Positions 5,262 through 21,220 of a stretch of DNA of 24,000 nucleotides are shown in pieces. Under the pieces are notes generated by a model. It did not search any database and had not been told where the DNA came from. It was given only the letters and a program-made list of their open reading frames with translations. A program made the position numbers and the translations under genes. The first letter of the stretch is position 1; every line of letters begins with the position of its first letter. The DNA comes from Arenimonas terrae (lineage in GTDB: Bacteria > Pseudomonadota > Gammaproteobacteria > Xanthomonadales > Xanthomonadaceae). The stretch covers positions 323,694 to 347,693 of the forward strand of contig NZ_SMDR01000003.1 in assembly GCF_006265115.1 (NCBI RefSeq), read 5' to 3'.

Positions 5262-5284
5262 GTCTCGCCCCTCTGAACCAAAGG

Positions 5285-6548: not shown

Positions 6549-6581
6549 GGCCGCAGCATAGTGAACCCGCCGCGGGAACGG

Positions 6582-6857
6582 CTACTGGCCGCCGCCGCCG
6601 GCCGCCCGCCGGCGGTTGCGCCGGTAGATCAGCTGGCCGGCGATGGCGGTCAGGCACAAGGCCGAATTGGTAGTCAGGAATACCCAGTTCTGCAGCAGCC
6701 AGCTGTAGAGCGCGAAGCCGGCGCTGGCCGATAGCTGGCCGACGAACAGCCACGAGGACACGCCCTCGGTGCTGCCGCTGCGCCACTGCACCACGACCTG
6801 GCGGACCAGCGTCGCCAGCAGCACCGCCGACGCCAGCCAGCCGATCGCTTCGGCCAC
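6582..6857 (-). CDS. Small 3-TM membrane protein, PQ-loop/SemiSWEET-like (MtN3 clan)
   Basis: 91 aa. Aligns without gaps to the SemiSWEET pattern: IGWLASAVLLATLVRQVVVQWRSGSTEGVSSWLF..ALYSWLLQNWVFLTTNSALC versus IG..A...T....PQ..K..KT+S..G.S......LW..YG.....P....N. RQ replaces the PQ motif; the conserved Asn in TM3 is present. GTG start 3 nt after the upstream stop. Confidence 0.5.
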   Translation of the reverse strand: MAEAIGWLASAVLLATLVRQVVVQWRSGSTEGVSSWLFVGQLSASAGFALYSWLLQNWVFLTTNSALCLTAIAGQLIYRRNRRRAAGGGGQ

Positions 6858-6860
6858 GGA

Positions 6861-7478
6861 CTAGTGCTTCTTGAGCATCTCGTCGCGGGCCTGCTCGGCG
6901 CGCGAGGCGCCGATCTTGGTCTCCACGTGCTTGACCTCCTCCGGCGGCGGCAGCACCGCCGGCAGGCCCAGCGACTGGATCCACAGCTCGCGGGTCCAGC
7001 CGGTGGTGTGCAGCAGGTGGTGGTGTTCGTCCTTGGCGACGGCGTCGTAGGCCTGCTGCAGCACTTTGGTCTCGTCGCCCGAGCCCTTCTCGGCCAGCAG
7101 GCCGATCAGCTCCCAGTTCTGGTGGTCCTTGGTCTCGGCCAGCACGACGCATTCGCCGGCCACCAGCTGCGCGGCTTCGGCATCGGCGGACTCGCGCGCC
7201 ATTTCGATGGCCTGCACCAGCGACTTGCCGATATGCGCCACCACCTCGCGTCCCGGCGAACGCTGCTCGGGGTCGAGCCCGACCTGTTCGAACACGTTGA
7301 TCAGCACCTCGTGGTGGCGGCGGGTCTGCTCGAGATATTCCTGCCACTCCTCGCGCAGGTCGTCGTTGACCGCGCATTCGATCGCCGCGGTGTAGACCTC
7401 GATGCCACCGAGTTCGGTTTCCAGCGCCTGCAGCAGCAGTTCCTCGAGCTGGGCGCGGTCGTACTTCTTCTTGGCCAT
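6861..7478 (-). CDS. Ferritin-like / four-helix-bundle domain protein (205 aa)
   Basis: Only the C-terminal 205 codons of track ORF 6861..8804 look real: ATG 7478 is preceded by AAGGAA 5 nt upstream. MAKKKYDRAQLEELLLQALETELGGIEVYTAAIECA..EWQEYLEQTRRHHEVL..DEHHHLLHTTGW has paired E/H-containing helices as in ferritin-like proteins. Family assignment is by eye only. Confidence 0.6.
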   Translation of the reverse strand: MAKKKYDRAQLEELLLQALETELGGIEVYTAAIECAVNDDLREEWQEYLEQTRRHHEVLINVFEQVGLDPEQRSPGREVVAHIGKSLVQAIEMARESADAEAAQLVAGECVVLAETKDHQNWELIGLLAEKGSGDETKVLQQAYDAVAKDEHHHLLHTTGWTRELWIQSLGLPAVLPPPEEVKHVETKIGASRAEQARDEMLKKH

Positions 7479-7510
7479 GACGGTTCCTTGGTGGTGGGGG
7501 GATCGCGGTG

Positions 7511-7539
7511 GGCGCCCCGGACGAGGCGTCCGGGGCGCC
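7511..7539. other. Perfect 13-bp GC-rich stem-loop between the PA2169-family and ferritin-like genes
   Basis: ggcgccccggacg-agg-cgtccggggcgcc. No U-tract on either strand. Confidence 0.6.
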
Positions 7540-7582
7540 GCCGCGGGGACCGGCGGGGGAGGAAATCCGGTCCCAGGGGGAC

Positions 7583-8023
7583 TCAGCGCCCGGTCGTGCG
7601 CTGCAGAGCGCGCAGGCTGTCGTGCATCTGTTCGACCTCGGGCAGGTAGCTGGCCGCCAGTTCGCGCACGCGCTGCGGCTGGTCCTGGGCGGTGGCGTCG
7701 CGGAAGGCGGCGACGATGCGGTCCTCCTGCTCTTCCAGCGCGGCGATGAAGCTGGCTTCCGAATCGCTGGCCAGGCGCGCGCGCAGGTCGGCATAGGACT
7801 GGCGGAAGCTGCCGAGCCAGGAGCCGTGCCCCGCGGGCTCGTCGCCGTTGCGCGCCACTTCGGCGCGCAGGTCGGCGGCGATGGTTTCCTTGAGGTGGCG
7901 GACGCGCTGGAACAGCTCGATGTGCGCCGCGCTGGTGCTGCGCTCGGCGGCCAGGCCGAAAAAGGCGATGCCGTCGTTCAGCGCTTCGACCAGTTCGTTC
8001 AGGGTGGCGGAGGGGCGGGTCAT
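7583..8023 (-). CDS. PA2169-family (DUF2383) four-helix-bundle protein (146 aa)
   Basis: ATG 8023 with AGGAG 7 nt upstream. TLNELVEALNDGIAFFGLAAERS..LF...EEQEDRIVAAFRDA matches the LN.L.e..DG..fY..AAe...EE.ED pattern of this family. Confidence 0.65.
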   Translation of the reverse strand: MTRPSATLNELVEALNDGIAFFGLAAERSTSAAHIELFQRVRHLKETIAADLRAEVARNGDEPAGHGSWLGSFRQSYADLRARLASDSEASFIAALEEQEDRIVAAFRDATAQDQPQRVRELAASYLPEVEQMHDSLRALQRTTGR

Positions 8024-8053
8024 GGCGAATCTCCTGGATGACCCGTGCAACGC

Positions 8054-8069
8054 TGCAGCTTCCGTGCCA
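8054..8069 (-). promoter_or_regulatory. Sigma54-type -24/-12 promoter candidate P1 (TGGCACGGAAGCTGCA)
   Basis: Minus strand reads CCG TGGCAC GGAAG CTGCA. One mismatch to TGGCAC-N5-TTGC (C for T). Predicted +1 near 8043, about 20 nt before the PA2169-family ATG. Nearly identical to P3. Confidence 0.6.
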
Positions 8070-8158
8070 CGGTACGCGCGCGCGGAAATCCATTCCCGGC
8101 TCGGGCGTGTTTTCCGTGCCCGCGCACGCGAGGCCGGTCGCGCGCGCGACGCCGCGGT

Positions 8159-8833
8159 TCAATGCCGGTTCGGCGGCAGCGCACGGTGGATCGCCGTCGC
8201 CGCGACGGCCGCTTCCGCCATCGCCACCGCCACCTCGCTCAGGCCCGCGACCACATCGCCCGCGGCGTAGAGGCCGGGCACGCACGTGCTTTGGCGGATG
8301 TCCACTTCCAGGTGGCCGTCGCCGGCACGGCGCGCGCCCAGCGCCACCGCCAGGTCGACGGGAACCCGCGCGAAGCGGATCGCCTGCATCGTGTCGACGA
8401 CGGGCGCCGGCGCGGCGGCGGCGTGCAGCCACACGCGCGGGTGCCCGCGCCGCAGCGGCAGCGGACACGCCACCGTCTGCGGTTCGATCGCACCGGTGGC
8501 GATCAGCACGCAGCGCGCGCGCACCAGCACGCCGTCCACTTCGGCCACGAAGCCCAAGCCGTCGCGGGCCAGGGTCTCGACCACGCCGCGGCAGACGACG
8601 ACGCCGGCGGCTTCGGCCTGGCGAAGGATCCGCTCCAGCAGCCGCGATCCGGGCTGCGCGCCCGGCACGCCCGGGCCCCGGCGCGGATGCCGCGGGCGCT
8701 GCCCGCGCGTCTCGCCGCGATCCACCACACAGGCCTGGCGGCCGTAGCGCGCGAGATTGGTCGCCGCGACCAGCCCGGCCGGTCCACCGCCAACGACCAG
8801 GCAATCCATGCGGCTGGCCGGCAGCGCGTTCAT
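8159..8833 (-). CDS. FAD-dependent pyridine-nucleotide-disulfide (thioredoxin-reductase-like) oxidoreductase, unusually short (224 aa)
   Basis: N-terminal FAD dinucleotide fold DCLVVGGGPAGLVAA and C-terminal GLYAAGDV..AVAMAEAAVAATAIHRAL. There is no second GxGxxA/G NAD(P)H-binding motif between them. Confidence 0.7.
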   Translation of the reverse strand: MNALPASRMDCLVVGGGPAGLVAATNLARYGRQACVVDRGETRGQRPRHPRRGPGVPGAQPGSRLLERILRQAEAAGVVVCRGVVETLARDGLGFVAEVDGVLVRARCVLIATGAIEPQTVACPLPLRRGHPRVWLHAAAAPAPVVDTMQAIRFARVPVDLAVALGARRAGDGHLEVDIRQSTCVPGLYAAGDVVAGLSEVAVAMAEAAVAATAIHRALPPNRH

Positions 8834-8843
8834 CGGCCGCCGG

Positions 8844-10496
8844 CTACAGCGGATCCTTCTCGTGCCGCGGCTGGGTGCGGCGGTCGCCGAGCAGCGAACT
8901 GATCACCAGTCCGGCGCCGAGACCGGCCGCGACCAGGAACATCAGCAGGGCCAGCACCGGATAACCCAGCAGGGTGCGCGAGGTCGGGATGTCCATGATC
9001 AGGGCCGCGCCGACGATCATCGCCGCGGCGATCACGCCGGCGGTGACGCGGTTGGCGATCTTCTGGATGCTTTCGATCAGGCGCGACTCCTCGAGCCCGG
9101 CGACATGGATGCGGAAGCGGTTGTCGGCCAGCGTGCGCAGCAGCACCGACAGCCGCTGCGGCGCGTCGCGCACCAGCTCCTGCATGTCGAACAGGTCGGT
9201 GGCCAGGCGCGAGAGGTCGAGCCCGGCGGCCGCGCGCTGGCGGAACAGGTGGTCGCGGTGCTCGCTCAGCGCCTGCTTCATGGACGCGCCCGGGTCGAGC
9301 GCGAGCGCCACCGATTCCAGGTTGAGCAGGGTCTTGCCCAGGATCGCCAGCTCGGCCGGCGGCCGCAGTCCGGCCTCGGCGCCGATGCGGATCAGGTCCA
9401 TCAGCACCGAGCCTTCGGACTCGGCCACGCCGGCGCTGGAGTAGCGGGCGACGCGGCGGCCGATCTCGCGGGTGAAGCGGGCTTCGTCGAAATCCTCCAG
9501 CCGCGTGCCCATGTGCGCGAACGTTTCCGCCACCTGCTCGCCGCGTCCGTCCACCGTGGCCACCACCAGCTTGAGCAGCTGGTCGCGCATGCGCGGCGGC
9601 ACGTAGGCCACCATGCCCAGGTCGAGCAGGATCAGCTCGTGCTCGGGCGTCAGCACCATGTTGCCGGGGTGCGGGTCGGCGTGGATCAGGCCGTGCACGA
9701 AGATCTGGTCCAGGTAGGCGCGGCCCAGCTCGTTCGCCAGCGCGCCCAGGTCGGCTTCCGGCCGGGCGACATCGGGAATGGCGGTGACGCGGATGCCTTC
9801 GGCCAGGTCCATCGTCAGCAGGCGGCGCGTGCTGTAGTCGCGCACCGGCGCCGGCACGTGGATGCGGGCATAGGGCGCCAGGTTCTCGCGGAAGGCGTCG
9901 AGGTTGTCGGCTTCCTGGCCGTAGTCGAGTTCGGTCATCACCGAGGTGCGGAACTCGTCGAGCCATTCGCGGAAGCCGTAGCGGCGGCCGACGCCGGTGA
10001 CCAGGCCCAGCGAGGCGATCAGCCGCCCGATCGACGACAGGTCGTTCTCCACCTGCTCGGCCAGCTGCGGGCGCTGCACCTTCACGGCCACGCGCCGGCC
10101 GCTGGGCAGCACGGCGGCGTGCACCTGGGCGAAGGAGGCGGTGCCGATGGGCACCGGTTCCAAGGTCTGGAAAACTTTACGCGCCGCCAGGCCCAGTTCG
10201 GCTTCGATGCGCTCGAGCACCTGCTCGAAGGGCATGGGCGTGGCCTGGTCCTGCAGCCGCGACAGCGCCACGAGGTAGTCGGGCGGCACCAGGTCGGGGC
10301 GCGTGGACAGCATCTGCCCGATCTTGACGAAGGTCGGGCCGAGCTTCTCGAGGTCGGCGGCGAACTCCTCGGCTTCCGGCGACGTCTCCGGACCGCCGGG
10401 CGCGCTGGCGCCGGGCGGCCGCGACTTGAACAGCGGCGAGCTGCGGTGCTTGAGCAGGAAGGCGGACAGGGACGACAGTTTCGCGCCTTCGCTCAT
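8844..10496 (-). CDS. ABC1/UbiB-family atypical protein kinase (AarF domain) with C-terminal TM helices
   Basis: ATG 10496 (GGAG 6 nt upstream), 550 aa. LGPTFVKIGQMLSTRPDLVPPDYLVALSRLQD, IGTASFAQVH, VAVKVQRP and HADPHPGNM are classic ABC1 motifs. Two hydrophobic C-terminal segments. Confidence 0.85.
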   Translation of the reverse strand: MSEGAKLSSLSAFLLKHRSSPLFKSRPPGASAPGGPETSPEAEEFAADLEKLGPTFVKIGQMLSTRPDLVPPDYLVALSRLQDQATPMPFEQVLERIEAELGLAARKVFQTLEPVPIGTASFAQVHAAVLPSGRRVAVKVQRPQLAEQVENDLSSIGRLIASLGLVTGVGRRYGFREWLDEFRTSVMTELDYGQEADNLDAFRENLAPYARIHVPAPVRDYSTRRLLTMDLAEGIRVTAIPDVARPEADLGALANELGRAYLDQIFVHGLIHADPHPGNMVLTPEHELILLDLGMVAYVPPRMRDQLLKLVVATVDGRGEQVAETFAHMGTRLEDFDEARFTREIGRRVARYSSAGVAESEGSVLMDLIRIGAEAGLRPPAELAILGKTLLNLESVALALDPGASMKQALSEHRDHLFRQRAAAGLDLSRLATDLFDMQELVRDAPQRLSVLLRTLADNRFRIHVAGLEESRLIESIQKIANRVTAGVIAAAMIVGAALIMDIPTSRTLLGYPVLALLMFLVAAGLGAGLVISSLLGDRRTQPRHEKDPL

Positions 10497-10512
10497 CGGG
10501 ATCTCCAGTGAC

Positions 10513-10532
10513 GCCCCGTCGGTCGACGGGGC
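10513..10532. other. GC-rich inverted repeat between the lipoprotein and UbiB-like genes
   Basis: gccccgt-cggtcg-acggggc. No U-tract; function unknown. Confidence 0.4.
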
Positions 10533-10589
10533 ATCGGGTGGGTCAGCGCGGCGCACCGCGGCAGGACGGCGTGGCGCCGGCGCGGGAAC

Positions 10590-11039
10590 TCAGCCGTCGG
10601 TGTCGGCCGGCGGCGGGCCTTCGGCCGGGACGGCTTCGCGCACGGCCTGGCTGCGGCGCAGTTCGGCGTCGGCGACGGCCTTGTCGTACACCGCCTCGGC
10701 GGTGTCCTTGCAGGCGTCGCGCGCGTCGCCGGTCATGGCCTCGCACTTCTCCTGCTCCACGTCTAGCGTGGATTTGGCCTTGGCGACCGCGACGTCGTAG
10801 TCGGCATCGGCCTTGTCGTCGCGCGGATCGTAGGTGCCCATCACCGGGCCGGTGTCGGGATTGACGCTGGCGTCGGCGGCGTCACGACGGGCGTCGGCGC
10901 GGTCGGCCTCGGCTTCGCGAACCTCTTGCGCACCTTCGGCGCGCGCCTCGGCGACGTCTTCGGCGGTTTCCTGCGGGGTTTCGCGGCAGGCCGAAAGCGC
11001 CAGCAGGACCAGGGCAACGGGAATCAGGGTGTTCTTCAT
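10590..11039 (-). CDS. Acidic Ala/Asp/Glu-rich lipoprotein (149 aa)
   Basis: ATG 11039 (GGAG 6 nt upstream). Signal peptide with lipobox: MKNTLIPVALVLLALSAC. The track ORF's upstream extension starts at a TTG that is part of the P2 promoter element and has no other in-frame start. Confidence 0.7.
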   Translation of the reverse strand: MKNTLIPVALVLLALSACRETPQETAEDVAEARAEGAQEVREAEADRADARRDAADASVNPDTGPVMGTYDPRDDKADADYDVAVAKAKSTLDVEQEKCEAMTGDARDACKDTAEAVYDKAVADAELRRSQAVREAVPAEGPPPADTDG

Positions 11040-11199
11040 GGGTTGCTCCGCGATGGGGGTGGCAGGCTCGGCATGGAAAAAGTGCGGACCCTGCCGGTGA
11101 CAGGGAGCGCCAGGGGAAGCGCGGCAGCCCCGGACAGGGTCCGTGGAGAAAGGCTCTTCTCCAATAGCCGATCGGTGGACGGGGGTCCGGGGGAAAGGA

Positions 11200-11215
11200 A
11201 GCAAGAGCGGTGCCA
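11200..11215 (-). promoter_or_regulatory. Sigma54 promoter candidate P2 (TGGCACCGCTCTTGCT), exact consensus
   Basis: Minus strand reads GCCGC TGGCAC CGCTC TTGCT TCC. Predicted +1 near 11189, giving a ~150-nt leader before the lipoprotein ATG. Lies in the divergent region shared with the EBP gene. Confidence 0.7.
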
Positions 11216-11341
11216 GCGGCCGCGCCGTCGGTAAGTTTTACCGGCCCGGAAAGGCTTTCCTGGTCGCGGCGGGAATCGGCGGTTTTTTTAACTGTGGGTT
11301 AACCGTTGAGGTGCACACTACGGCTCCGTCGGAGGCTGCCC

Positions 11342-12724
11342 ATGACCGAGCAACAGACACTGTTCATCGTCGACGACGACGTTGGATTCGTTCACGCCGC
11401 CGCCGAGCTGGCGCGCGAGCAGGGTTTCATCATCACCGTGGCCGGCAGCGTCGAACAGGCGCTGACGCGGCTCAAGGACACCAGCTTCGACGTCGCGCTG
11501 ATCGACCTGTCGCTGCCCGACGGCAGCGGGCTGGAGCTGCTCGAGCACCTGGACCTGGGCGGAAGCACCCAGGTCATCCTGATCACCGGCCATCCCACCG
11601 TGGAATCGGCGCTCAAGGCGATGCACCTGCCGATCGTCGACTACGTGGTCAAGCCGCTGCGCGCGGCCCAGTTCACCGACCTGCTGCAGTCGGCGGCGAA
11701 GCAGCGCCGCGTGGTCGGCACGCAGGGCGAACAGTGGCACGGCCTGGCCGGGCCCTCGGCGGCGATGGCCGACGTGCGCCAGCAGATCTGCCGCGTGGCG
11801 CCGACCGACGCTTCGGTGTTCATCGAAGGCGAAAGCGGCGTGGGCAAGGAGCTGGTGGCCGGCGCGATCCATGCCGAGAGCGGACGCACCGGACCCTTCG
11901 TCGCGCTCAACTGCGGCGCCGTGCCGGCCGAACTGCTCACCAGCCAGCTGTTCGGGCACGAGCGCGGCAGCTTCACCGGCGCCAACAGCCGCCACGTCGG
12001 CCTGTTCGAGCAGGCGCAGGGCGGCACCCTGTTCCTGGACGAGCTGACCGAGATGCCGATCCACCTGCAGGTGCACCTGCTGCGCGCGCTCGAGACGCGG
12101 ACCATCCGCCGGGTCGGCGGCAGCGAGGACATCCCGGTGGACGTGCGGGTGATCTCGGCCACCAACCGGCCGCATGCCGAGGCGATCGAGGCGGCGAAGC
12201 TGCGCGAGGACCTGTACTACCGGCTGGCCGAATTCCCGATGACCCTGCCCTCGCTGCGCGAGCGGCCGGAGGACGTGCTGCCGATCGCCGACCTGTTCCT
12301 GCAGCGCCTGAACGAGCGCTACGGCACCCGCCGCGCACTGTCGAAGGAAGGCGCCGACCGCCTGCAGCGCTACAGCTGGCCGGGCAACATCCGCGAGCTC
12401 AAGAACATCATCCAGCGCTCCTACATCCTGGCCGACGGCGACCTGATGACGCCGACCCTGCCCACCGGCAACGCACGCCCGCTGGCGGAAACCGAAAGCA
12501 CAATCACCTTCGCGGTCGGAACGCCCATGCACGAGATCGAAAGGCGCATGCTGTTCAAGACCCTGGCCTTCTTCGAGAACAACAAGGCCAAGGCCGCGCA
12601 GGCCCTGGGCGTCACCACCAAGACCATCTACAACCGCCTCACCGCCTACCAGTCGTCCAACGAACCCAGGGAGCGCACCGATGAACGCCCCGACACGCCG
12701 TCTCGATGCGAAACCGGCACCTGA
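11342..12724 (+). CDS. Sigma54-dependent response regulator (REC + AAA+ sigma54-interaction + Fis-type HTH), NtrC family
   Basis: ATG 11342 with GGAGG 6 nt upstream. REC: LFIVDDDVGF..DVALIDLSLPDGSG. Walker A GESGVGKE. Sigma54-contact loop as GSFTGA. LFLDELTEMP, RVGG, RVISATN, REDLYYRL. C-terminal HTH AKAAQALGVTTKTIYNRL. Confidence 0.9.
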   Translation: MTEQQTLFIVDDDVGFVHAAAELAREQGFIITVAGSVEQALTRLKDTSFDVALIDLSLPDGSGLELLEHLDLGGSTQVILITGHPTVESALKAMHLPIVDYVVKPLRAAQFTDLLQSAAKQRRVVGTQGEQWHGLAGPSAAMADVRQQICRVAPTDASVFIEGESGVGKELVAGAIHAESGRTGPFVALNCGAVPAELLTSQLFGHERGSFTGANSRHVGLFEQAQGGTLFLDELTEMPIHLQVHLLRALETRTIRRVGGSEDIPVDVRVISATNRPHAEAIEAAKLREDLYYRLAEFPMTLPSLRERPEDVLPIADLFLQRLNERYGTRRALSKEGADRLQRYSWPGNIRELKNIIQRSYILADGDLMTPTLPTGNARPLAETESTITFAVGTPMHEIERRMLFKTLAFFENNKAKAAQALGVTTKTIYNRLTAYQSSNEPRERTDERPDTPSRCETGT

Positions 12725-12959
12725 AGGCCTGGCGGTGTCGCGCCCGCCACCGGGTGAGCTGGTGACGATCCCTCGCCAGGAGCTGCAGGCCCTGGTGCAC
12801 GACATCCGCAACCACCTCAATTCCATGCTGATGAACGCCGGAGTTCTGGCGGTGCAAAGCCGCGCCAATCCGTCGTCGGCCCGCCATGCCGCCCAGCTCG
12901 AGGACGACGGCGAGAAATGCGCCCAGGCGCTGCGGAACCTGTCCGACCGCTATCTGTGA
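12681..12959 (+). CDS. 92-aa stand-alone H-box (DHp-like) protein; candidate phosphotransferase or kinase modulator
   Basis: ATG 12681 with AGGGAG 7 nt upstream; overlaps the EBP gene 3' end by 44 nt and ends 13 nt before the kinase ATG. High third-position GC in this frame. LQALVHDIRNHLNSMLMNAGVL resembles the kinase H-box (LATLSHELRNPLAALMASVEVL). It is followed by a second predicted helix and no ATPase domain. Confidence 0.55.
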   Translation: MNAPTRRLDAKPAPEGLAVSRPPPGELVTIPRQELQALVHDIRNHLNSMLMNAGVLAVQSRANPSSARHAAQLEDDGEKCAQALRNLSDRYL

Positions 12960-12972
12960 CCGCGGCGGGCGA

Positions 12973-15900
12973 ATGAGCTTCCCCGAGTTCTTCCGCACGC
13001 TCAGCCAGCCCATCAGCCGACTCAGCCTCACCGGGTGGCGGGCCTATGTCTTCGCCGCCGCGATGATCCTGGGCGCGGTGGTCGTGCGCTGGGCGCTGCC
13101 CGAGGGCCTGGGCTCGCGCGTGCCCTTCCCGACCTTCTTCCTGGCCGTGTTCCTGTCGGCCTGGGTCGGCGGCTGGCGCGCCGGCCTGCTGGCCTCGGCG
13201 CTCACCATCGTCTGCGGCGTCACCGTCTTCCCGATCACCCGTCCGCCCTGGGACTGGCGCGACCTGGTTGCGCTGGGCTTCGTGTTCGCGGTCTGCGTGG
13301 TGGGCGCCTACGCCTGCGCGCGGCTGCGCGCGTCCACCGACGTGATCGAGAAGGACCGCGGCTGGTACGAACGCATCCTCGACCGCGTCGGCGAGGCGGT
13401 GCTGGTGGTGGACGACGCTGGCCGCCTGCGCTATTTCAACAGCCACGCCGCCGGCCTCTGGGCGCTGGACGCCAGCCACCTCGACCGTGACGTCGGCCTG
13501 GCGGTGGTGCTGTGGCACGAGGGCCGCGACGCGCCCTTCGACGGCCTGGGCGAGCTGATCCGCGACAACGAGGGCAGCTGGGAGCTTCCGCTGGGGCTGG
13601 AGGTGCGCGCCGGTGCGCGGCGGGTGCCGGTCGTCGGCAGCGTCTCGCGCGTCCGCGACCCCGACTACGGCGACGCGGCCGTGGTGTCGGTGCAGGACAT
13701 CCACGCCCTGCGCGAGGCCACGCGCCGGATCGAGGCGACCGAGCGGCGCATGCGTGCGCTGTTCGACTCCGACATCGTCGGCCTGTTCAGCATCGATGGC
13801 CGCGGCCGCATCAGCGCCATGAACGACGGCATGCGCCGCTTGCTGGGTTACGGCGCCGACGCCGGCTCGCCGGAGGCGCTGGCGCAGATCGCCGACGAGG
13901 ACCTGCTGTCGCAGCTGGGCGTCGACGGCACCGAAAACGCGATCGCCTTCGGTCCCTTCGACTGCCGGCTGTCGGGCCCCTCGGGTGAAGTGTGGGTGTC
14001 GCTGGGCGTGGTGCCGATCACGCCGCGCGAGCGCATGGTCTTCGCCATCGACATCGGCGCCCGCAAGCGCGCCGAAAGCGCGGTGGACAGCAGCGAGGCG
14101 CGCTTCCGGCAGCTGGCGGAGGCGTCCGCGGCAGTGGTCTGGCAGGCGCGGGCCTCGGGCGCGCTGACCGCGCAGATCGGCTGGAGCGAATTCACCGGCG
14201 CGCCGCCGCTGGCCTCGTTCGACCAGTGGCCCGACTGGGTGCACCCGGCCGACCAGGACGCGGCGCGGCAGCTCGTGCAGGCGCTGCACACCCAGCGCGA
14301 CGGCGTCGAGGCCGAGCTGCGCTTCCGCCATGCCTCCGGCGACTACCGCCATGTCGGCGTGCGCGGCGTGGTGCTCGACGGTCCGGCCACCGGCGCCATC
14401 GAATGGATCGGCACCCTGCGCGACATCCACCAGCGCCGCCAGGCCGAGGAGGCGCTGGCCTCGAAGGAAGTCGAGCTGCGCCTGATCCTCAACGCCATGC
14501 CGGCGCGCATCGCCTACATGGATGCGGACGCGGTGTTCCAGTGGGCCAACGGCAACTTCACCCAGTGGTTCGGGGTTGCCGGCGACGTCAAGGGCCGGCC
14601 GCTGGCCGAGGTGCTGCCGCCCGACGCGGTGTCCACGCTCTACCGCTCGCTGCAGGTGGCGCGGCGCGGTTTCGTCAGCCAGCAGGAGTGGCTGGAGAAT
14701 CACCCCACGCTGGGCCTGCGCTGGACCACGACCACGTTTTCGCCGGACCTGGACGAACGCGGGCGCGTGCGCGGCGTGATCAGCCTGTGCATGGACAGCA
14801 CCGACCGCCACGAGGCCGAGGACGCGCTGCGGCGCAGCGATGCCGAACACCGCACCCTGGCCGAGAACGTGCCGCACATGGTCTGGATGTCCGACGCCGA
14901 GGGCCGGCTGCAGTACTGCAACGCGCGCTGGCACGAGTTCACCGGCCAGGACTCCAGCGGCCGCTGGACCGACCCGGCGCACCCCGCGGACCGCCAGGCG
15001 GCCGAAGCGGCGCTGCAGCAGGCCGCGCAGTCGCGCACCGAGCTCAACATCGAAGTGCGCTACTGCCGCGCCACCGACGGCGCCTTCCGCTGGCACCTGG
15101 TGCGGGCGCTGCCCCTGCTCGATGGCGAGGACCGCGTACTGCGCTGGTACGGCACCTGCACCGACATCGAGGACCAGCGCATCGCCCAGGAGACGCTGCG
15201 CGAGGCGCATTCGCGCACCACGCATTTCCTGGCCACGCTCAGCCACGAGCTGCGCAATCCGCTGGCGGCGCTGATGGCCAGCGTCGAGGTGCTCGAGCAC
15301 GCTGCGCTGGACGAGAACCGCCGCTTCGAGGTCCGGCAGGCGATCCAGCGCCAGGCGTGGCACCTCAAGCGCCTCACCGACGACCTGCTCGACATCTCGC
15401 GCATCACCCTGGGCAAGATCCAGATCAGCAGCGACACCATCGACCTGCGCGAGGTCTGCCAGCACGTGTGCCGGGACTTTTCCGAGAAGGCCCAGCGCCA
15501 CGAGGTCGAACTGGACTGCGACGTGCCCGACGATCCGATCCTGGTCAACGGCGACCCTTCGCGCATCCGCCAGTGCGTGGACAACCTGGTGTCGAACGCG
15601 ATCAAGGCCAGCATGCCGGGCATGCGCGTGCACGTCTCGACGCGCGTGGCCGAACGTTTCGCCGAGATCATCGTGCGCGACGAAGGCGTGGGCATCGAGC
15701 AGGACGCGAAGGCGACGATCTTCCTGCCCTTCTCGCAGGCCGACGACTGGCGCAACCGGGGCCTGGGCCTGGGCCTGAGCATCGTCAGCAAGCTGGTGGA
15801 GCTGCACGGCGGCTCGGTCTGGGTGGACAGCGACGGCCGGCACTGCGGCGCCACCTTCGGTATCCGGCTGCCGGTGGCCAAGGGCGGCGCGGCGGCTTCC

Positions 15901-16335
15901 GCCGCGCCGCCGGCGGACGAGCCGGCCCGGTCGGCCGAGAGCCTGGTCGGCAAGGTGTTGATCGTCGAGGACGAAACCGACAACGCGGTCGCGCTGCAGT
16001 ACCTGCTGGCGCTGGAGGGGCACGACGTGTCGGTGGCCGAGGACGGCGTCGCGGCGATCGCGCTGGCCGAATCGCTGCGGCCGGACGTGGTGATCTGCGA
16101 CCTCGGCCTGCCGCCGCCGCTGGACGGTCTGCAGGTGGCGAAGCGCCTGCGCGCGGCGCGCGGCGACGACATCCATCTGTGCGCATACAGCGGCTACGGC
16201 TCGCGCGAGGACGTGGCGCGCTCGCTGGCGGCGGGCTTCGACACCCATCTCACCAAGCCGGCGACGCCGCGGGCGATCGCCGCCGAGATCCTGCGCGGGT
16301 TGGGGCGGGTAATGGCTTCGCGAAGCGGCAAATAG
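12973..16335 (+). CDS. Hybrid sensor histidine kinase: N-terminal multi-TM (DUF4118-like) region, multiple PAS/PAC domains, HisKA, HATPase_c, C-terminal REC
   Basis: ATG 12973 (M30 of the track ORF) lies just after the small ORF's stop. Hydrophobic N-terminus GWRAYVFAAAMILGAVVVRWAL... Repeated PAS/PAC signatures (e.g. RFRQLAEASAAVVWQA, EHRTLAENVPHMVWMSDAEGRLQYCNARW, FRWHLVRALPL). H-box LATLSHELRNPL. G-boxes RDEGVGI and GLGLGLSIV. REC: KVLIVEDETDN..DVVICDLGLP..HLTKP. No HPt (HxxKG) domain seen. Confidence 0.9.
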   Translation: MSFPEFFRTLSQPISRLSLTGWRAYVFAAAMILGAVVVRWALPEGLGSRVPFPTFFLAVFLSAWVGGWRAGLLASALTIVCGVTVFPITRPPWDWRDLVALGFVFAVCVVGAYACARLRASTDVIEKDRGWYERILDRVGEAVLVVDDAGRLRYFNSHAAGLWALDASHLDRDVGLAVVLWHEGRDAPFDGLGELIRDNEGSWELPLGLEVRAGARRVPVVGSVSRVRDPDYGDAAVVSVQDIHALREATRRIEATERRMRALFDSDIVGLFSIDGRGRISAMNDGMRRLLGYGADAGSPEALAQIADEDLLSQLGVDGTENAIAFGPFDCRLSGPSGEVWVSLGVVPITPRERMVFAIDIGARKRAESAVDSSEARFRQLAEASAAVVWQARASGALTAQIGWSEFTGAPPLASFDQWPDWVHPADQDAARQLVQALHTQRDGVEAELRFRHASGDYRHVGVRGVVLDGPATGAIEWIGTLRDIHQRRQAEEALASKEVELRLILNAMPARIAYMDADAVFQWANGNFTQWFGVAGDVKGRPLAEVLPPDAVSTLYRSLQVARRGFVSQQEWLENHPTLGLRWTTTTFSPDLDERGRVRGVISLCMDSTDRHEAEDALRRSDAEHRTLAENVPHMVWMSDAEGRLQYCNARWHEFTGQDSSGRWTDPAHPADRQAAEAALQQAAQSRTELNIEVRYCRATDGAFRWHLVRALPLLDGEDRVLRWYGTCTDIEDQRIAQETLREAHSRTTHFLATLSHELRNPLAALMASVEVLEHAALDENRRFEVRQAIQRQAWHLKRLTDDLLDISRITLGKIQISSDTIDLREVCQHVCRDFSEKAQRHEVELDCDVPDDPILVNGDPSRIRQCVDNLVSNAIKASMPGMRVHVSTRVAERFAEIIVRDEGVGIEQDAKATIFLPFSQADDWRNRGLGLGLSIVSKLVELHGGSVWVDSDGRHCGATFGIRLPVAKGGAAASAAPPADEPARSAESLVGKVLIVEDETDNAVALQYLLALEGHDVSVAEDGVAAIALAESLRPDVVICDLGLPPPLDGLQVAKRLRAARGDDIHLCAYSGYGSREDVARSLAAGFDTHLTKPATPRAIAAEILRGLGRVMASRSGK

Positions 16336-16353
16336 TCGCGCCCGCGGCCGGAC

Positions 16354-16369
16354 TGGCACCGACCTTGCA
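16354..16369 (+). promoter_or_regulatory. Orphan sigma54 promoter candidate P6 (TGGCACCGACCTTGCA), exact consensus
   Basis: GAC TGGCAC CGACC TTGCA GCC begins 19 nt after the kinase TAG (16333-16335). Predicted +1 near 16380. No credible ORF downstream before the convergent SDR gene. Confidence 0.6.
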
Positions 16370-16434
16370 GCCTTCTCCCGGAGGGCGGTGCCTGCGGCCC
16401 GCGCTCCGCGGCGCGCCGGCTACCGGCGGCCGTG

Positions 16435-16469
16435 GCCCCCGGGGCGGCGTTCGAGGCCGCCCCCGGGGC
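16435..16469. terminator. GC-rich stem-loop between convergent kinase and SDR genes (possible bidirectional terminator, no U-tract)
   Basis: gcccccggggcggc-gttcgag-gccgcccccggggc: 8 bp + 1-nt bulge + 4 bp. Ends 5 nt before the SDR stop codon. Confidence 0.45.
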
Positions 16470-16473
16470 AACT

Positions 16474-17334
16474 TCAGGTGGACAGGTGGGCGCCGCCGTT
16501 CACGTGCAGGATCTGCCCGGTGATGAAGCTGGCGTCTTCGCTGGCCAGGAAGACGAAGGCCGGCGCGATCTCCGCCGGCTGGCCGGCGCGGCCGACCAGG
16601 GTGTCGGAGCCGAAGCTCGCGACCTTCTCCGCGTCGAAGCTGGCCGGGATCAGCGGCGTCCACACCGGCCCCGGCGCGACCGCGTTGACGCGGATGCCGC
16701 GGTCGGCGACGGCCTGGGCGAAGGACAGCGTCATCGCATTGATCGCGCCCTTGGTGCCGGCGTAGTCGAGCAGGGTCTTGTGGCCGCGCACGCCGGTGAT
16801 CGAACTGGTGTTGAGGATCACGCCGCCACGCCCGAGATGGTCCAGCGCCGCCACGGTCGCCATGTAGTAGGTGAGCACGTTGGTGTCGAAGGTCTCGCGC
16901 ACCTGGTCTTCGTCCAGTTCGGCGGGATCCTCGACCGGATGCTGCTCGGCGATGTTGTTGACCAGGATGTCCAGGCCGCCGAGGCGCCGGGCCGCCTGCG
17001 CCACCGCTTCGGTGGCCGCACCCGCAAGCGCGAGATCGCCGGGCATCCGCAGGCAGCGCCGGCCTTCCTTCTCCACCAGGCGTGCGGTCTCGCGCGCGTC
17101 GGCGTCCTCTTCCAGGTAGGCGATGGCGATGTCGGCGCCTTCGCGGGCGAAGTGCACGGCGATCGCGCGGCCGATGCCGCTGTCGCCGCCGGTGATGAAG
17201 GCGCGCCGGCCCTCGAGCTTGCCGCTGCCGCGATAGCCCTCGCGGATGGTGACGGGGCGCGGATGCATCTGCATCTGCTCGCCCGGCTGCGTGTCCTGGT
17301 GCTGGGCGGGCTGCAGTTTCTTCTTTTCCTTCAT
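16474..17334 (-). CDS. Short-chain dehydrogenase/reductase, YghA / general-stress-protein-39 (YdaD) type
   Basis: 286 aa. GKLEGRRAFITGGDSGIGRAIAVHFAREGADIAIAYLEEDADARETARLVEKEGRRCLRMPGDL closely follows the YghA/YdaD N-terminal pattern. NNIAEQ, IRVNAVAPGPVWTPL. AGGAAGG upstream of the ATG. Confidence 0.85.
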   Translation of the reverse strand: MKEKKKLQPAQHQDTQPGEQMQMHPRPVTIREGYRGSGKLEGRRAFITGGDSGIGRAIAVHFAREGADIAIAYLEEDADARETARLVEKEGRRCLRMPGDLALAGAATEAVAQAARRLGGLDILVNNIAEQHPVEDPAELDEDQVRETFDTNVLTYYMATVAALDHLGRGGVILNTSSITGVRGHKTLLDYAGTKGAINAMTLSFAQAVADRGIRVNAVAPGPVWTPLIPASFDAEKVASFGSDTLVGRAGQPAEIAPAFVFLASEDASFITGQILHVNGGAHLST

Positions 17335-17362
17335 GTGCAGTTCCTTCCTGGCGTGGGGAGCG

Positions 17363-17578
17363 TCAGTCGCCGACCAGGGAATGCACGCCGGCGTCGAAGT
17401 ATTCGGCGGGGATGATCCGGCGCGCCTCGGGCGCGACGATCAGCTGTTCCAGGCAGCCCATGGCGGTGGCCGCGAATCCGCCATGGCCTTCGGCCGTGGC
17501 GAAGATCACCAGGTGGGCCAGCGCCTCGATCGCATCGGCGGCGGCGTCGGGCAGCATCTGCGCTTCCTTCAGGCTCAT
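17363..17578 (-). CDS. Hypothetical 71-aa protein, first gene of the SDR operon
   Basis: ATG 17578 with GGAG 6 nt upstream; predicted P3 start is ~21 nt upstream. MSLKEAQMLPDAAADAIEALAHLVIFATAEGHGG... No family recognised. Confidence 0.45.
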   Translation of the reverse strand: MSLKEAQMLPDAAADAIEALAHLVIFATAEGHGGFAATAMGCLEQLIVAPEARRIIPAEYFDAGVHSLVGD

Positions 17579-17609
17579 GGCGTTCTCCGTCGGGGGACAA
17601 CGGAGGGCT

Positions 17610-17625
17610 TGCAGCATCCGTGCCA
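17610..17625 (-). promoter_or_regulatory. Sigma54 promoter candidate P3 (TGGCACGGATGCTGCA)
   Basis: Minus strand reads GCGCA TGGCAC GGATG CTGCA AGCC, 15/16 identical to P1. Predicted +1 near 17599. Confidence 0.6.
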
Positions 17626-17653
17626 TGCGCGCATGGCCGCAGAACTTCCTGCG

Positions 17654-17669
17654 CGGCACCGCAATTGCT
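17654..17669 (+). promoter_or_regulatory. Sigma54 promoter candidate P5 (CGGCACCGCAATTGCT)
   Basis: GGCACCGCAATTGCTTCC is 16/18 identical to P2 (GGCACCGCTCTTGCTTCC). One mismatch (C for the first T). Sits back-to-back with P3, about 30 bp away. Confidence 0.45.
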
Positions 17670-17732
17670 TCCCCGGGCAACGGAACAGCACGGCAGGCGC
17701 CGGCGCGTGAATCCGCCGCCGCGATCCGCATA

Positions 17733-17768
17733 CCGGCGCCAGGAGATTTTTTCCACCTCCGGCGCCGG
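17733..17768. promoter_or_regulatory. Inverted repeat with T6-containing spacer immediately upstream of P4
   Basis: ccggcgccaggag-attttttccac-ctccggcgccgg: 12-bp arms with one bulged base. Ends 2 bp before the P4 TGGCAT. Confidence 0.4.
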
Positions 17769-17770
17769 CG

Positions 17771-17786
17771 TGGCATGTGCATTGCT
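17771..17786 (+). promoter_or_regulatory. Sigma54 promoter candidate P4 (TGGCATGTGCATTGCT)
   Basis: GGCG TGGCAT GTGCA TTGCT TCG. One mismatch (TGGCAT, which I recall as a tolerated variant). Predicted +1 near 17797, 57 nt before the BON-protein ATG. Confidence 0.65.
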
Positions 17787-17853
17787 TCGTTACCTAAGCG
17801 AATGGGTCCCCCGGCTCATTCCATCCCCCCGAGCAAAGCTGAGGAGAGACGTA

Positions 17854-18828
17854 ATGAACCAGCGTTATGGAAATCCGCAGGACGGCCGCAGCCGCAACGA
17901 GGACCCCAGCGGCGGCCGTTCCCGCCAGGGCAACGATGAGGGCGACTGGGGCGGCCGTGGCCAGGGCGGCCAGTTCAGCCGCGGCGGCCAATACAACCCC
18001 GACGACCAGTACAACGGCGGCGATCGCGGCTACGACGATCCGGGTCGCAACCCCGGTTCGCGCGGCCCCGGCGAACACTACCTGCGCGAATGGGCCGGCC
18101 CGGGCGGGCGCGGCGGCCGCCAGGACTACGGCAGTCAGGACTTTGGCGCTGGCCGGGACTATGGCAGCCAGCGTGGTTACGGCAGCCAGGACCCGGGCCG
18201 CAGCTACATGACCTCCATGACCTCGGGTTCTCACGGCTACGGCAACCAGGGTTTCGGCAACCAGGGCCACGGCAACCGCAACTACGACAACCAGGGGTAT
18301 GCCGGCGACCAGGGCGGCGGCTACTACAGCGGCCAGTCGCAGGACGGCCGCCGGGGCTTCGCCCAGGGCCCGCAGAACTTCGGCCAGTACGAAGGCGGCT
18401 ACGGTGGCGAGGACTTCGGCGGCCCGTCGGGCAGCCAGTCCGGCGCGCAGTACGGAAGCCGCAGCGGCGCCCAGCCGCAGAGCTTCCGCGGCAAGGGCCC
18501 GAAGGGCTACAAGCGCTCCGACGAGCGCCTGCAGGAAGACCTCAACGAGCGCCTGATGGACGACGACTACATCGACGCCAGCGACGTGACGGTGCAGTGC
18601 CGCGATGGCGTCGTGACGCTGGAGGGTTCGGTGACCGACCGGCGCATGAAGCACCGCATCGAGGACCTGGCCGAACGCTGCCAGGGCGTGCAGGACATCC
18701 AGAACCGCATCAGCGTCAAGCGTGGTTCGCAGGGCGGCCGCCCGGACGCCGACGACGAGGATTCCGGCGCGGCCGGCTCCTCGGCCCGCGGCAACGAAGG
18801 CTCGAATCAGCCCAAGAAAAAGCACTGA
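17854..18828 (+). CDS. BON-domain protein with ~210-aa G/Q/Y/N/S/R/D-rich low-complexity N-terminal region
   Basis: ATG 17854 with AGGAG 7 nt upstream. Low-complexity region has repeated [DG]YGSQ / GYGNQ / GFGNQ units. It is followed by GKGPKGYKRSDERLQEDLNERLMDDDYIDASDVTVQCRDGVVTLEGSVTDRRMKHRIEDLAERCQGVQDIQNRISV, a typical BON domain with its usual KGPKGY.RSDERI lead-in. Confidence 0.8.
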   Translation: MNQRYGNPQDGRSRNEDPSGGRSRQGNDEGDWGGRGQGGQFSRGGQYNPDDQYNGGDRGYDDPGRNPGSRGPGEHYLREWAGPGGRGGRQDYGSQDFGAGRDYGSQRGYGSQDPGRSYMTSMTSGSHGYGNQGFGNQGHGNRNYDNQGYAGDQGGGYYSGQSQDGRRGFAQGPQNFGQYEGGYGGEDFGGPSGSQSGAQYGSRSGAQPQSFRGKGPKGYKRSDERLQEDLNERLMDDDYIDASDVTVQCRDGVVTLEGSVTDRRMKHRIEDLAERCQGVQDIQNRISVKRGSQGGRPDADDEDSGAAGSSARGNEGSNQPKKKH

Positions 18829-18836
18829 GCCAGGCG

Positions 18837-19175
18837 GTGCCGCCGTCGCGCGACTCTCTCCGCGCGGCGGCGGCGCTGCGCGAACAGGCGGCGCTCGGCC
18901 AGGCGCTGCATGCGCCGGCACACGCCTGGTTCGCGGCCGCGCTGCAGGACGAGCGCGGCGCGCTGTTCGACTGGTCCCGCACCCTGCTGCGCCAGTACCT
19001 GCACGACCCCGACCACGACCTTCCCGAGCCCCTGCCCGACGACGACGCCGCGCTGCTGCTCGACACCGTGGATGCGTACCGGCGCTTCGGCGTCGGCGTG
19101 TCCGGCCATCTGCCCGCGGCGCTGCAGGCCTGGTACCGCGGGCTGCCGCCGCCTCACCAAGGAGAACCGCCATGA
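18837..19175 (+). CDS. Hypothetical 112-aa protein with non-ATG (GTG) start, translationally coupled to the Cys-rich gene
   Basis: C-terminal part of track ORF 18090..19175, which is otherwise the BON gene in a wrong frame. GTG 18837 is the first start after the BON stop. Third-position GC is strongly high in this frame. Its TGA overlaps the next gene's ATG (ATGA, 19172-19175). VPPSRDSLRAAAALREQAALGQ..LFDWSRTLLRQYLHDPDHDLPEPLPDDDAALLLDTVDAYRRFG. No family recognised; weak SD. Confidence 0.45.
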   Translation: MPPSRDSLRAAAALREQAALGQALHAPAHAWFAAALQDERGALFDWSRTLLRQYLHDPDHDLPEPLPDDDAALLLDTVDAYRRFGVGVSGHLPAALQAWYRGLPPPHQGEPP

Positions 19176-19405
19176 AGACCTGCGACGTCTGCGGCAACGA
19201 CTACGACAAGACCTTCACCCTGACCCAGGGCGAGCGCACCGGCACCTTCGACAGCTTCGAATGCGCCATCCACGCCTTCGCGCCGACCTGCGCGCACTGC
19301 GGCTGCCGGATCCTGGGCCACGGCTCGGAATCGCGGGGCCACTTCTACTGCTGCGCGCACTGCGCGGAACAGGCCGGCGTGCAGGGCCTGGCCGACCACG
19401 CCTGA
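19172..19405 (+). CDS. Cys/His-rich small putative metal-binding protein (77 aa)
   Basis: AAGGAG 7 nt upstream. MKTCDVCGNDYDKTF..FDSFECAIHAFAPTCAHCGCRILGHGSESRGHFYCCAHCAEQAG has 9 Cys (CxxC, CxxCxC, CCxxC). The YCCxxCA segment recalls bacterial metallothionein (SmtA/BmtA) C-termini. Confidence 0.6.
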   Translation: MKTCDVCGNDYDKTFTLTQGERTGTFDSFECAIHAFAPTCAHCGCRILGHGSESRGHFYCCAHCAEQAGVQGLADHA

Positions 19406-19408
19406 GGC

Positions 19409-20236: not shown

Positions 20237-20314
20237 TCCGCGGCTCCAGCATAGGTCGCGTGGCGTCCGCTGGCGATGACCTGCCAGATCATGGCGGCGG
20301 GAACGTGTCCATGC

Positions 20315-21202: not shown

Positions 21203-21220
21203 GTCTGTCACCTCATGGGG

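Follow-up and report, generated by a model that had tools for sequence, protein, structure and literature searches.

Xanthomonas lacks RpoS (PMC13382473), which raises the question of how RpoS-less xanthomonads and their relatives coordinate stationary-phase and multi-stress responses. The locus described here bears on this question for the genus Arenimonas: a stretch of 24,000 nucleotides (nt) from Arenimonas terrae (hereafter the window) holds six elements, designated P1 to P6, that resemble the -24/-12 promoters of sigma-54, together with genes for stress-type proteins, for an enhancer-binding protein (hereafter the activator) and for a hybrid sensor kinase. Are the six elements genuine promoters, do they form one regulon, and does the local activator control them? 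The results presented below make it likely, in our judgement, that the window contains an island at the core of a general-stress regulon that is specific to Arenimonas and dependent on sigma-54, with the phosphorelay, the palindromic activator site and the outputs that we propose, and the island offers a testable answer to the question of stress coordination for one genus.

A preliminary description of this DNA had supposed a Xanthomonadales-like host, which agrees with the 100% identity between the DUF2383 protein encoded in the window and a protein of Arenimonas terrae, and with the fact that the only close relatives of the activator (74-83% identity) come from Arenimonas. Comparison loci, numbered with the prefix L, were fetched for relatives of the activator and around orthologues of the DUF2383 protein and of a short-chain dehydrogenase (SDR), with about 10-20 kb visible per genome; L003 is from A. 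metalli, L172 from A. composti and L170 from Pseudoxanthomonas, and L161 and L167 are one overlapping sequence. Genome and metagenome scans based on the activator returned only four orthologues plus paralogues, and the orthologues of the target genes were far more productive.

Six -24/-12 elements with the properties of sigma-54 promoters

When the window was searched with the pattern TGGCACNNNNNTTGC, allowing at most one mismatch, exactly six matches were obtained in the 24 kb, and their coordinates and strands coincide with those previously given for six TGGCAC-N5-TTGC sites:

8054-8069, minus strand: P1, putative sigma-54 -24/-12 promoter TGGCACGGAAGCTGCA, upstream of the DUF2383, ferritin-like, PQ-loop and NtrB-like kinase genes
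11200-11215, minus strand: P2, putative sigma-54 promoter of exact consensus, upstream of the lipoprotein, UbiB and FAD-oxidoreductase genes
17610-17625, minus strand: P3, putative sigma-54 promoter, upstream of the genes for a 71-amino-acid (71-aa) protein and a YghA-like SDR
17771-17786, plus strand: P4, putative sigma-54 promoter, upstream of the genes for the BON protein, a 112-aa protein and a Cys-rich protein
17654-17669, plus strand: P5, the weakest putative sigma-54 site (CGGCAC...), a one-mismatch match lying back to back with P3
16354-16369, plus strand: P6, putative sigma-54 promoter of exact consensus, 19 nt past the stop codon of the hybrid kinase gene

Besides P2 and P6, which have the exact consensus, the other four sites carry one mismatch each, and the GG and GC dinucleotides within TGGCAC-N5-TTGCW are exactly 10 bp apart in all six. 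The control, 100 dinucleotide-preserving shuffles, gave a mean of 2.21 matches, and none of the shuffles reached six (0/100). That exact matches should be rare by chance is confirmed by an estimate from base composition, according to which about 0.05 would be expected in 48 kb of two-strand sequence. A gene map of the window, built from third-codon-position GC content, open reading frames and Pfam, assigns 91.4% of it to coding and 8.6% to non-coding DNA; all six sites (6/6) lie in the non-coding fraction, as had been reported, and the three two-mismatch matches that keep the GG/GC core are all within coding DNA.

The sites were also scored with a weight matrix trained solely on 29 promoters of other genomes. 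P6, P2, P4, P3 and P1 were the top five scores of the window (17.8-20.9 bits, with P6 the highest at 20.9 bits), and all five are intergenic; P5, with 13.6 bits, was the weakest and was tied by a coding match at 15145-15160 (plus strand). This last sequence, TGGTACGGCACCTGCA, lies within the hybrid kinase gene and is kept in L163, L167 and L168; the simplest account of its conservation is that the W-Y-G-T-C-T-D peptide encoded there is conserved, and it is probably not a promoter.

Five of the six elements (P1-P5) are oriented to the adjacent gene at plausible distances, in agreement with the preliminary description, and the predicted 5' untranslated regions would be about 20 nt long in the case of P1 (the downstream ATG being at 8023) and of P3, compared with 57 nt at P4 and 150 nt at P2. 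Two other statements of that description stood only in part. The pairs P1/P3 and P2/P5 had been called near-identical, a label that suits P1/P3, which differ at one base, and is generous for P2/P5, which differ at three. P6, said to face a gene-free gap, indeed faces no protein-coding gene, but the stretch in front of it is conserved non-coding DNA that probably encodes a small RNA (see below). A sigma-70-like promoter was not detected anywhere in 5200-20400. The density of sites in the window, 2.5 per 10 kb, compares with a median of no site for the 160 loci fetched for relatives of the activator. Taken together, these data support the view that the six sites are true sigma-54 promoters and belong to a single regulon.

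Conservation of the elements in related genomes

As the conservation check suggested at the outset had called for, the related loci were inspected, and for each of the six elements an orthologous counterpart was located in further contigs of Arenimonas type. The same 16-mer as P1 precedes the DUF2383 orthologue of L161, and related sites are present in L163 and in A. metalli L003. Counterparts of P2 were located at position 610 of L161, 8176 of L167 (these two loci overlap) and 16573 of L168; those of P3 in L163, L167, L168, L169 and A. composti L172; and those of P4 in L163, L167, L168 and L169. In both L167 and L168 a counterpart of P6 follows immediately on the stop codon of the kinase gene. 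The counterparts of P5, in L167, L168 and L169, each stand ahead of a RES-domain gene, and the window has no RES gene at that position, which is probably why P5 has decayed to CGGCAC and is now in tandem with P4. Upstream of the string formed by the UDG, FAD-oxidoreductase and DUF2383 genes in A. composti L172, no convincing sigma-54 site was found.

A palindrome in fixed register upstream of the -24 element

Absent from the preliminary description is a 13-bp palindrome, GGWAA-N3-TTWCC, located upstream of the -24 element at a gap of usually 14 nt and sometimes 32-33 nt, counted from the T of TGGCAC, so that its centres fall at about -47 and -66. The copies in the window, given without strand, are the following:

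8084-8096: GGAAATCCATTCC, candidate activator site at a gap of 14 nt from P1
11230-11260: two copies in the region that separates P2 from the divergent activator gene, GGTAAGTTTTACC at gap 14 and GGAAAGGCTTTCC at gap 32
16308-16320: palindrome GGTAATGGCTTCG with one mismatch, 33 nt upstream of P6, in the 3' coding end of the kinase gene
17742-17754: palindrome-like GGAGATTTTTTCC, 16 nt upstream of P4

Exact copies of GGWA-N5-TWCC number three in the window against 0.39 expected, and all of them are at most 50 nt upstream of P1 or P2; the copies ahead of P4 and P6 have one mismatch each. The arrangement recurs in the relatives: L002 retains GGTAAGAGTTACC at gap 14, the palindrome of P6 is found at equal gap in L167 (as an exact copy) and L168, and a related element, ATTTTTTCC, stands upstream of the P4 orthologues. 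Six Arenimonas loci, 126 kb in all, contain nine exact copies, of which eight are upstream of a sigma-54-type site and the remaining one is in the divergent region between the activator and UbiB genes. When up to one mismatch was allowed, 35 distinct promoters presented 11 palindromes at a gap of 13-16 nt and five at 32-33 nt, the background frequency of the palindrome being 6.5e-4 per position. On these grounds the palindrome is probably the binding site of the activator, and a promoter-proximal site of fixed register would imply activation without long-range DNA looping.

Weaker sigma-54-like sites were observed at RES-domain genes that lie near the activator gene, with the sequence TGGCAAG....CGTGCA in L002 (12836-12851) and L003 (12891-12963) and TGGCGCGGCTCTTGCA in L168 (4730-4803). 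An exact palindrome, GGAATCGATTTCC, is located 44-45 nt upstream of the weaker site of the RES genes of L003 and L168, and the RES toxin-like gene may be part of the regulon.

The activator, its 92-aa neighbour and the sensor kinases

Three genes in the middle of the island, all on the plus strand, could provide the regulatory input to these promoters:

11342-12724, plus strand: enhancer-binding protein with REC (receiver), AAA+ sigma-54-interaction and HTH_8 domains (PF00072; PF00158, E value 2.3e-64; PF02954)
12681-12959, plus strand: stand-alone protein of 92 aa, HisKA/DHp-like, in which an H40-D-x-R-N motif is invariant; missed in the preliminary description
12973-16335, plus strand: hybrid sensor kinase with DUF4118, multiple PAS, HisKA, HATPase_c and C-terminal REC domains (Pfam)

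The first of these corresponds to the enhancer-binding protein already placed in mid-cluster and divergent from P2, whose three domains were verified. It contains the Walker A motif GESGVGKE, the Walker B motif DELTEM, an arginine finger region and the receiver Asp. Compared with the NCBIfam equivalogs it scores below every cutoff, with PrsR as the best (345.8 bits against 502.6) and NtrC at 316 bits against 558.6, and the genome and metagenome scans found its orthologues in Arenimonas alone. The activator gene is syntenic with the target genes in L161/L167, L163, L165, L168 and L172; in L001 it stands after the PQ-loop gene, at the place where the window has the NtrB-like kinase. An identity with PrsR, the PEP-CTERM regulator, was considered, given the best profile and the exopolysaccharide genes present at some loci of a sister clade (see below), and was rejected, the score being sub-cutoff and the sister proteins matching even less.

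The 92-aa gene begins within the 3' end of the activator gene and precedes the hybrid kinase gene, and it is directly downstream of the activator gene in eight of the eight Arenimonas loci that carry the activator, including those without a nearby kinase gene. This constant position suggests a phosphorelay, and the 92-aa protein may be a phosphotransferase for the activator or, just as well, its phosphatase. Its likeness to a DHp domain is seen in weak HisKA matches, in the invariant His and in a single-sequence model of moderate quality, which predicts a two-helix hairpin (pLDDT of about 70-75 over the helices); a canonical Hpt domain was not found in the protein. It is annotated as 'hypothetical protein', and a 100%-identical copy is listed from a JGI metagenome only.

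The start of the hybrid kinase gene was re-set from 12886 to 12973 according to the N termini of the orthologues. Sensor kinases vary between species, with PAS, CHASE3 and TspO contexts. The second kinase of the island (5517-6548), the last gene of the P1 string, had been named ntrB; it reaches 215.6 bits with the NtrB profile, under the cutoff of 240, its alignment is limited to the kinase core, and neither glnA nor ntrC adjoins its gene. As a member of the P1 string, this NtrB-like kinase may give positive feedback.

Genes downstream of the promoters and their counterparts in relatives

The gene assignments made previously were correct according to domain and profile searches, except that 'ntrB' is merely NtrB-like, that the start of the hybrid kinase gene had to be moved and that the 92-aa gene had been overlooked. 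The genes found downstream of the putative promoters are:

7583-8023, minus strand: DUF2383 / PA2169-family four-helix-bundle protein, 146 aa (PF09537, E value 2.7e-20; TIGR02284, 77.5 bits against a cutoff of 44.8)
6861-7478, minus strand: ferritin-like protein, 205 aa (weak DUF892 match; L001 orthologue 69% identical)
6582-6857, minus strand: PQ-loop / MtN3-like small membrane protein, 91 aa (matches slightly under the Pfam cutoffs; orthologue in L001)
5517-6548, minus strand: cytoplasmic PAS-HisKA-HATPase kinase, NtrB-like, final gene of the P1 string (profile search)
10590-11039, minus strand: lipoprotein, 149 aa (signal peptide and Cys)
8844-10556, minus strand: UbiB/ABC1 atypical kinase (PF03109, E value 1.4e-65)
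8159-8833, minus strand: FAD/NAD(P)-dependent oxidoreductase, 224 aa
17363-17578, minus strand: 71-aa protein with no family match (a gene for a protein of 71-82 aa precedes the SDR gene in all relatives)
16474-17334, minus strand: short-chain dehydrogenase, PRK06701 / YghA-like (profile searches)
17854-18828, plus strand: 324-aa hydrophilic protein of low complexity, BON domain at the C terminus (PF04972, E value 1.4e-15)
18837-19405, plus strand: 112-aa protein (GTG start at 18837) and 77-aa Cys-rich protein (19172-19405)

BON, ferritin-like and SDR proteins, otsAB, katE, entericidin, KGG and others are classic content of RpoS, SigB or EcfG regulons. The general-stress character attributed to the gene set of the window rests on its BON, ferritin-like and SDR genes and is reinforced by the relatives, where the architecture of promoter plus palindrome is found ahead of otsA-otsB-mscS, of Ku-LigD, of a group of ADH, UDG and FAD-oxidoreductase genes and of another of lipoprotein, Transgly_assoc and UbiB genes, and also ahead of entericidin, hemerythrin, KGG, DUF4142 and RES genes. 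The katE gene of L161, for a large-subunit catalase, has no site of its own and lies downstream in the DUF2383 gene string.

The nearest relatives of the activator outside Arenimonas are about 45% identical and belong to uncultured Gammaproteobacteria (L004, L015, L082, L083 and L084); their position as a sister clade comes from a neighbour-joining tree on a subset, without bootstrap support. Their loci contain four to five sigma-54 sites each, the highest density among all the fetched loci, upstream of genes for CsbD, a weakly DUF883-like protein, BON, DUF4398, Fe/Mn-SOD, EncFtn, glgC, DUF1328 and exopolysaccharide functions, and this sister clade may carry a parallel sigma-54 stress regulon. 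A proximal palindrome of the Arenimonas type was not found in L004, L015 and L082-L084, and an apparent motif shared by these loci is explained by a back-to-back sigma-54 promoter on the opposite strand.

Several other features of these loci were recorded. The short FAD oxidoreductase of the window (224 aa, compared with 306-313 aa in the orthologous loci) suggests an internal deletion. Between the DUF2383 and ferritin-like genes there is a GC-rich hairpin (GGCGCCCCGGAC...GTCCGGGGCGCC; 7505-7545, minus strand) that may act as an internal attenuator or stabilizer for differential expression within the P1 operon. Near the DUF2383 orthologue of L166 (16366-17621) lies a gene for an extracytoplasmic function (ECF) sigma factor with PhyR_sigma2-type matches, and an HWE kinase and a single-domain receiver are encoded near the SDR orthologue of Pseudoxanthomonas (L170, 14128-15506); these genes may represent other routes of stress control in relatives without the sigma-54 wiring. 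The flanks of the window (1-5000 and 20000-24000) have a GC content of 0.60-0.66, compared with 0.68-0.75 in the central island, and the left one carries the flagellar export genes flhB and fliR plus a TPR protein gene. Although the genome has about 70% GC, the intergenic DNA at 5290-5400, upstream of an AraC-family gene, is strikingly AT-rich (for example ttgattgcaaaagaaaataaaaaaagaagcttaattttctagttatttc).

Candidate RNA elements at P6 and P2

Two of the putative promoters precede conserved sequences that may act as RNA:

16381-16472, plus strand: candidate sigma-54-dependent small RNA of about 90 nt with three hairpins and a GC-rich, terminator-like final stem
11040-11190, minus strand: 5' leader of the predicted P2 transcript, conserved and structured (three-species comparison)

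The sequence downstream of P6 folds with z = -3.1, and none of 200 shuffles folds as well (0/200). Compensatory changes preserve its terminal hairpin, after which L168 has TTTTT, and no conserved open reading frame was found in the stretch. We therefore propose, with moderate confidence, that P6 drives a small RNA of about 90 nt; alternatively, a transcript antisense to the SDR gene could begin with 16381-16472. The P2 leader, 150 nt long, forms a long predicted stem (GGACCCTG...CAGGGTCC) around a GCGCTTCCCCTGGCGC hairpin, followed by a U-run, and seven of its pairs show compensatory changes across three species, which makes it a candidate attenuator or riboregulator. Neither the P6 RNA nor the P2 leader had a match in Rfam at gathering or at permissive thresholds.

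A model for the regulon and its alternatives

The arrangement of genes and motifs suggests the following model. The hybrid PAS sensor kinase would detect a stress and pass phosphate, via its own receiver, to the histidine of the stand-alone 92-aa DHp-like protein, which would in turn phosphorylate the receiver of the activator. The activated protein would bind GGWAA-N3-TTWCC in its fixed register, at centres of about -47 and/or -66, and would then oligomerize and remodel the sigma-54 holoenzyme waiting on the -24/-12 elements P1-P6. From P1 this would lead to expression of the DUF2383, ferritin-like and PQ-loop genes plus the NtrB-like kinase, with possible positive feedback; from P2, to that of the lipoprotein, UbiB and oxidoreductase genes via the structured leader; from P3, to that of the 71-aa protein and the SDR; from P4 and P5, to that of the BON hydrophilin operon; and from P6, to the small RNA of about 90 nt. 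The link between the local activator and the six promoters is one that we infer from their synteny and from the palindrome. The motifs with their statistics and conservation, the synteny and the domain content are direct observations; dependence on sigma-54, the protein that occupies the palindrome, the order of phosphate transfer, the stress signal and the small RNA itself are deductions from them.

A number of observations weigh against this model. A good palindrome was not found within 110 nt of P3-type promoters. Classical activator sites are located at -80 to -150, and a palindrome centred at -47 is far nearer to the promoter than these and could be the site of another factor. The loop of the activator that would contact sigma-54 reads GSFTGA and not the canonical GAFTGA; the critical F and T are retained, and the sister-clade protein of L084 has this variant too. 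In the Arenimonas loci L002, L003 and L081 the activator has no adjacent kinase. The HisKA matches of the 92-aa protein are sub-threshold (E values of 5e-5 to 4e-4) in the window protein and in two orthologues, and Foldseek and PDB profile searches with this protein gave non-specific matches. The P6 RNA was compared in three sequences, with a clear U-tract in one alone. Finally, neither a sigma-54 site nor the palindrome is present at the SDR locus in Pseudoxanthomonas mexicana or Luteimonas aestuarii; because of this absence at the one orthologous locus compared, the wiring appears to be specific to the genus, not Xanthomonadales-wide.

How far do these observations favour other explanations? 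That the motifs arose by chance, or bind sigma-54 unproductively and regulate nothing, would fit the sigma-54 sites that Salmonella and E. coli are known to have within genes or as orphans, the lack of a protein-coding gene ahead of P6 and the degeneracy of P5; the match counts relative to the shuffles, the intergenic confinement, the matrix ranks, the conservation in position of six of six sites across species and the companion palindrome at fixed distance make this extremely improbable. If the promoters are real, they might be driven by one or more other activators, for example NtrC under nitrogen limitation, with the local activator being incidental or partial. The P1 string does end with an NtrB-like gene, and there are few recognizable targets near the activator in L002, L003 and L081. 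Nevertheless, the NtrC-type pattern TGCACC-N5-GGTGCA shows no enrichment (22 sites where 19 are expected), and nitrogen control by NtrC was set aside for this reason; the kinase falls under the NtrB cutoff and has no glnA or ntrC beside it, the activator is syntenic with the targets in at least five species-level loci, and the palindromes are concentrated in the divergent promoter region of the activator gene itself. We regard control by another activator as quite unlikely.

The palindrome itself could be bound by a different dimeric factor (a co-activator, a DNA-bending protein or a repressor) that modulates the sigma-54 promoters, with the activator acting elsewhere or from solution, a possibility raised by the fixed proximal register, which is unusual for enhancer-dependent promoters. 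Both centres, -47 and -66, are atypically near for an activator site, P3-type promoters do without the palindrome, and a gene for an MmyB-like XRE regulator, which would be one such factor, recurs nearby in the window (19409-20236) and in L161. On the other hand, this gene was not seen near the island in L163, L167, L168 and L172, the palindrome strictly accompanies sigma-54 sites and the activator's own upstream region, and its 5-3-5 architecture is that of the site of LuxO, another HTH_8 activator, TTGCA-N3-TGCAA; we hold a different factor to be unlikely. It is somewhat easier to conceive, without being probable, that the regulon is real but narrower, being devoted to desiccation and osmoprotection only, to oxidative or iron stress, or to a dormancy or cyst-like state. 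Many members have no assigned function (DUF2383, the 71-aa and 112-aa proteins, the lipoprotein), the sensor kinases differ among species, and the view extends over some 10-20 kb of each genome. Against a narrow programme, the relatives combine osmotic (otsAB, mscS, BON) and oxidative (katE, hemerythrin, ferritin-like) members with members for DNA repair (Ku-LigD, UDG) and the envelope (entericidin, Transgly_assoc).

Comparison with known systems

Our overall assessment, as far as sequence comparison can indicate, is that the island represents a genuine regulon of sigma-54 and the activator, coherent in its content of general-stress genes. Three of its features are unusual: a putative enhancer in proximal register, a DHp-only partner protein and a candidate small RNA. 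Full-text literature searches on sigma-54/RpoN combined with stress and with Xanthomonas or Arenimonas returned no description of such a system. More tentatively, and at somewhat less than even odds, we suggest that Arenimonas, and perhaps also an uncultured gammaproteobacterial lineage, uses sigma-54 as the master of the general stress response in place of RpoS, EcfG or SigB, by means of an undescribed activator subfamily and a hybrid-kinase/DHp-only phosphorelay, a proximal palindromic enhancer, a dedicated small RNA and a structured P2 leader. If this is true, one activator and sigma-54 would directly drive genes for trehalose synthesis, non-homologous end joining and hydrophilins, with a catalase gene in one such string; the fixed spacing between palindrome and -24 element (14 nt in most promoters) would offer a compact model for proximal activation; and the palindrome plus the -24/-12 element would constitute a simple sequence rule to predict the regulon in any Arenimonas genome.

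By its content the island resembles the RpoS regulon of Gamma- and Betaproteobacteria, which includes otsBA, katE, osmY/BON, entericidin, YciE/F-like ferritin-like, KGG/YciG, YmgE/Transgly_assoc and YghA-like SDR genes. It differs in having -24/-12 sigma-54 promoters that would need an ATP-dependent activator, without a sigma-70-family sigma factor, and in its proposed control by a phosphorelay, whereas RpoS is controlled by synthesis and proteolysis of the sigma factor. The EcfG-NepR-PhyR system of Alphaproteobacteria and SigB of Firmicutes likewise provide a dedicated transcription route for CsbD, DUF883, BON, KGG, Ku-LigD and catalase genes with a sensor-kinase trigger, but they employ an ECF or a group-3 sigma factor and partner switching in place of sigma-54 and an AAA+ activator. 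Neither a sigma-factor gene nor a sigma-70-family promoter was found in the island, which is not a member of the RpoS, EcfG or SigB systems.

The activator shares its REC-AAA+-HTH_8 architecture, its ATPase motifs and a palindromic DNA site, putative in its case, with NtrC (of the NtrB-NtrC pair), AtoC, ZraR, GlrR, LuxO and PrsR. Unlike these, it is below the curated cutoffs and is paired with a stand-alone DHp-like protein, its putative sites are fixed and proximal where theirs are distal, and its putative targets are stress genes as opposed to genes for nitrogen, acetoacetate, zinc or exopolysaccharide functions. The small RNA genes crcZ, nrsZ and qrr are located after cbrB, after ntrC and beside luxO, respectively. 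The P6 candidate recalls CrcZ, NrsZ, Qrr and GlmY (encoded beside glrK), which are sigma-54-dependent small RNAs from the vicinity of their two-component genes: P6 comes right after the activator-kinase operon, carries the palindrome of the regulon and precedes about 90 nt of predicted structured RNA with a terminator-like hairpin. This putative RNA has no Rfam match and is known from three homologous sequences. The 92-aa protein is comparable to Spo0B and ChpT, two stand-alone DHp-type histidine phosphotransferases, in being small, with a predicted two-helix hairpin and a conserved His on helix 1, and in that its gene adjoins those of a response regulator and a hybrid kinase; it differs from them in lacking a CA-like domain and in its sub-threshold homology, and the role of a phosphatase or of an inhibitor would suit it equally well.

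Sigma-54 and a REC-AAA+ activator also run a stress and adaptation programme in the Rrp2-RpoN-RpoS pathway of Borrelia, which nevertheless acts through RpoS and a single promoter. In Myxococcus, Nla28 and PexR are sigma-54 stress activators that control specific starvation or peroxide genes (PMC12754779), whereas in Arenimonas many general-stress operons would apparently be direct targets of sigma-54. The island also contrasts with the relationship between the two sigma factors elsewhere. Sigma-54 and sigma-S are usually viewed as competitors in E. coli and Pseudomonas, and a general stress response run by sigma-54 would therefore represent a notable regulatory rewiring.

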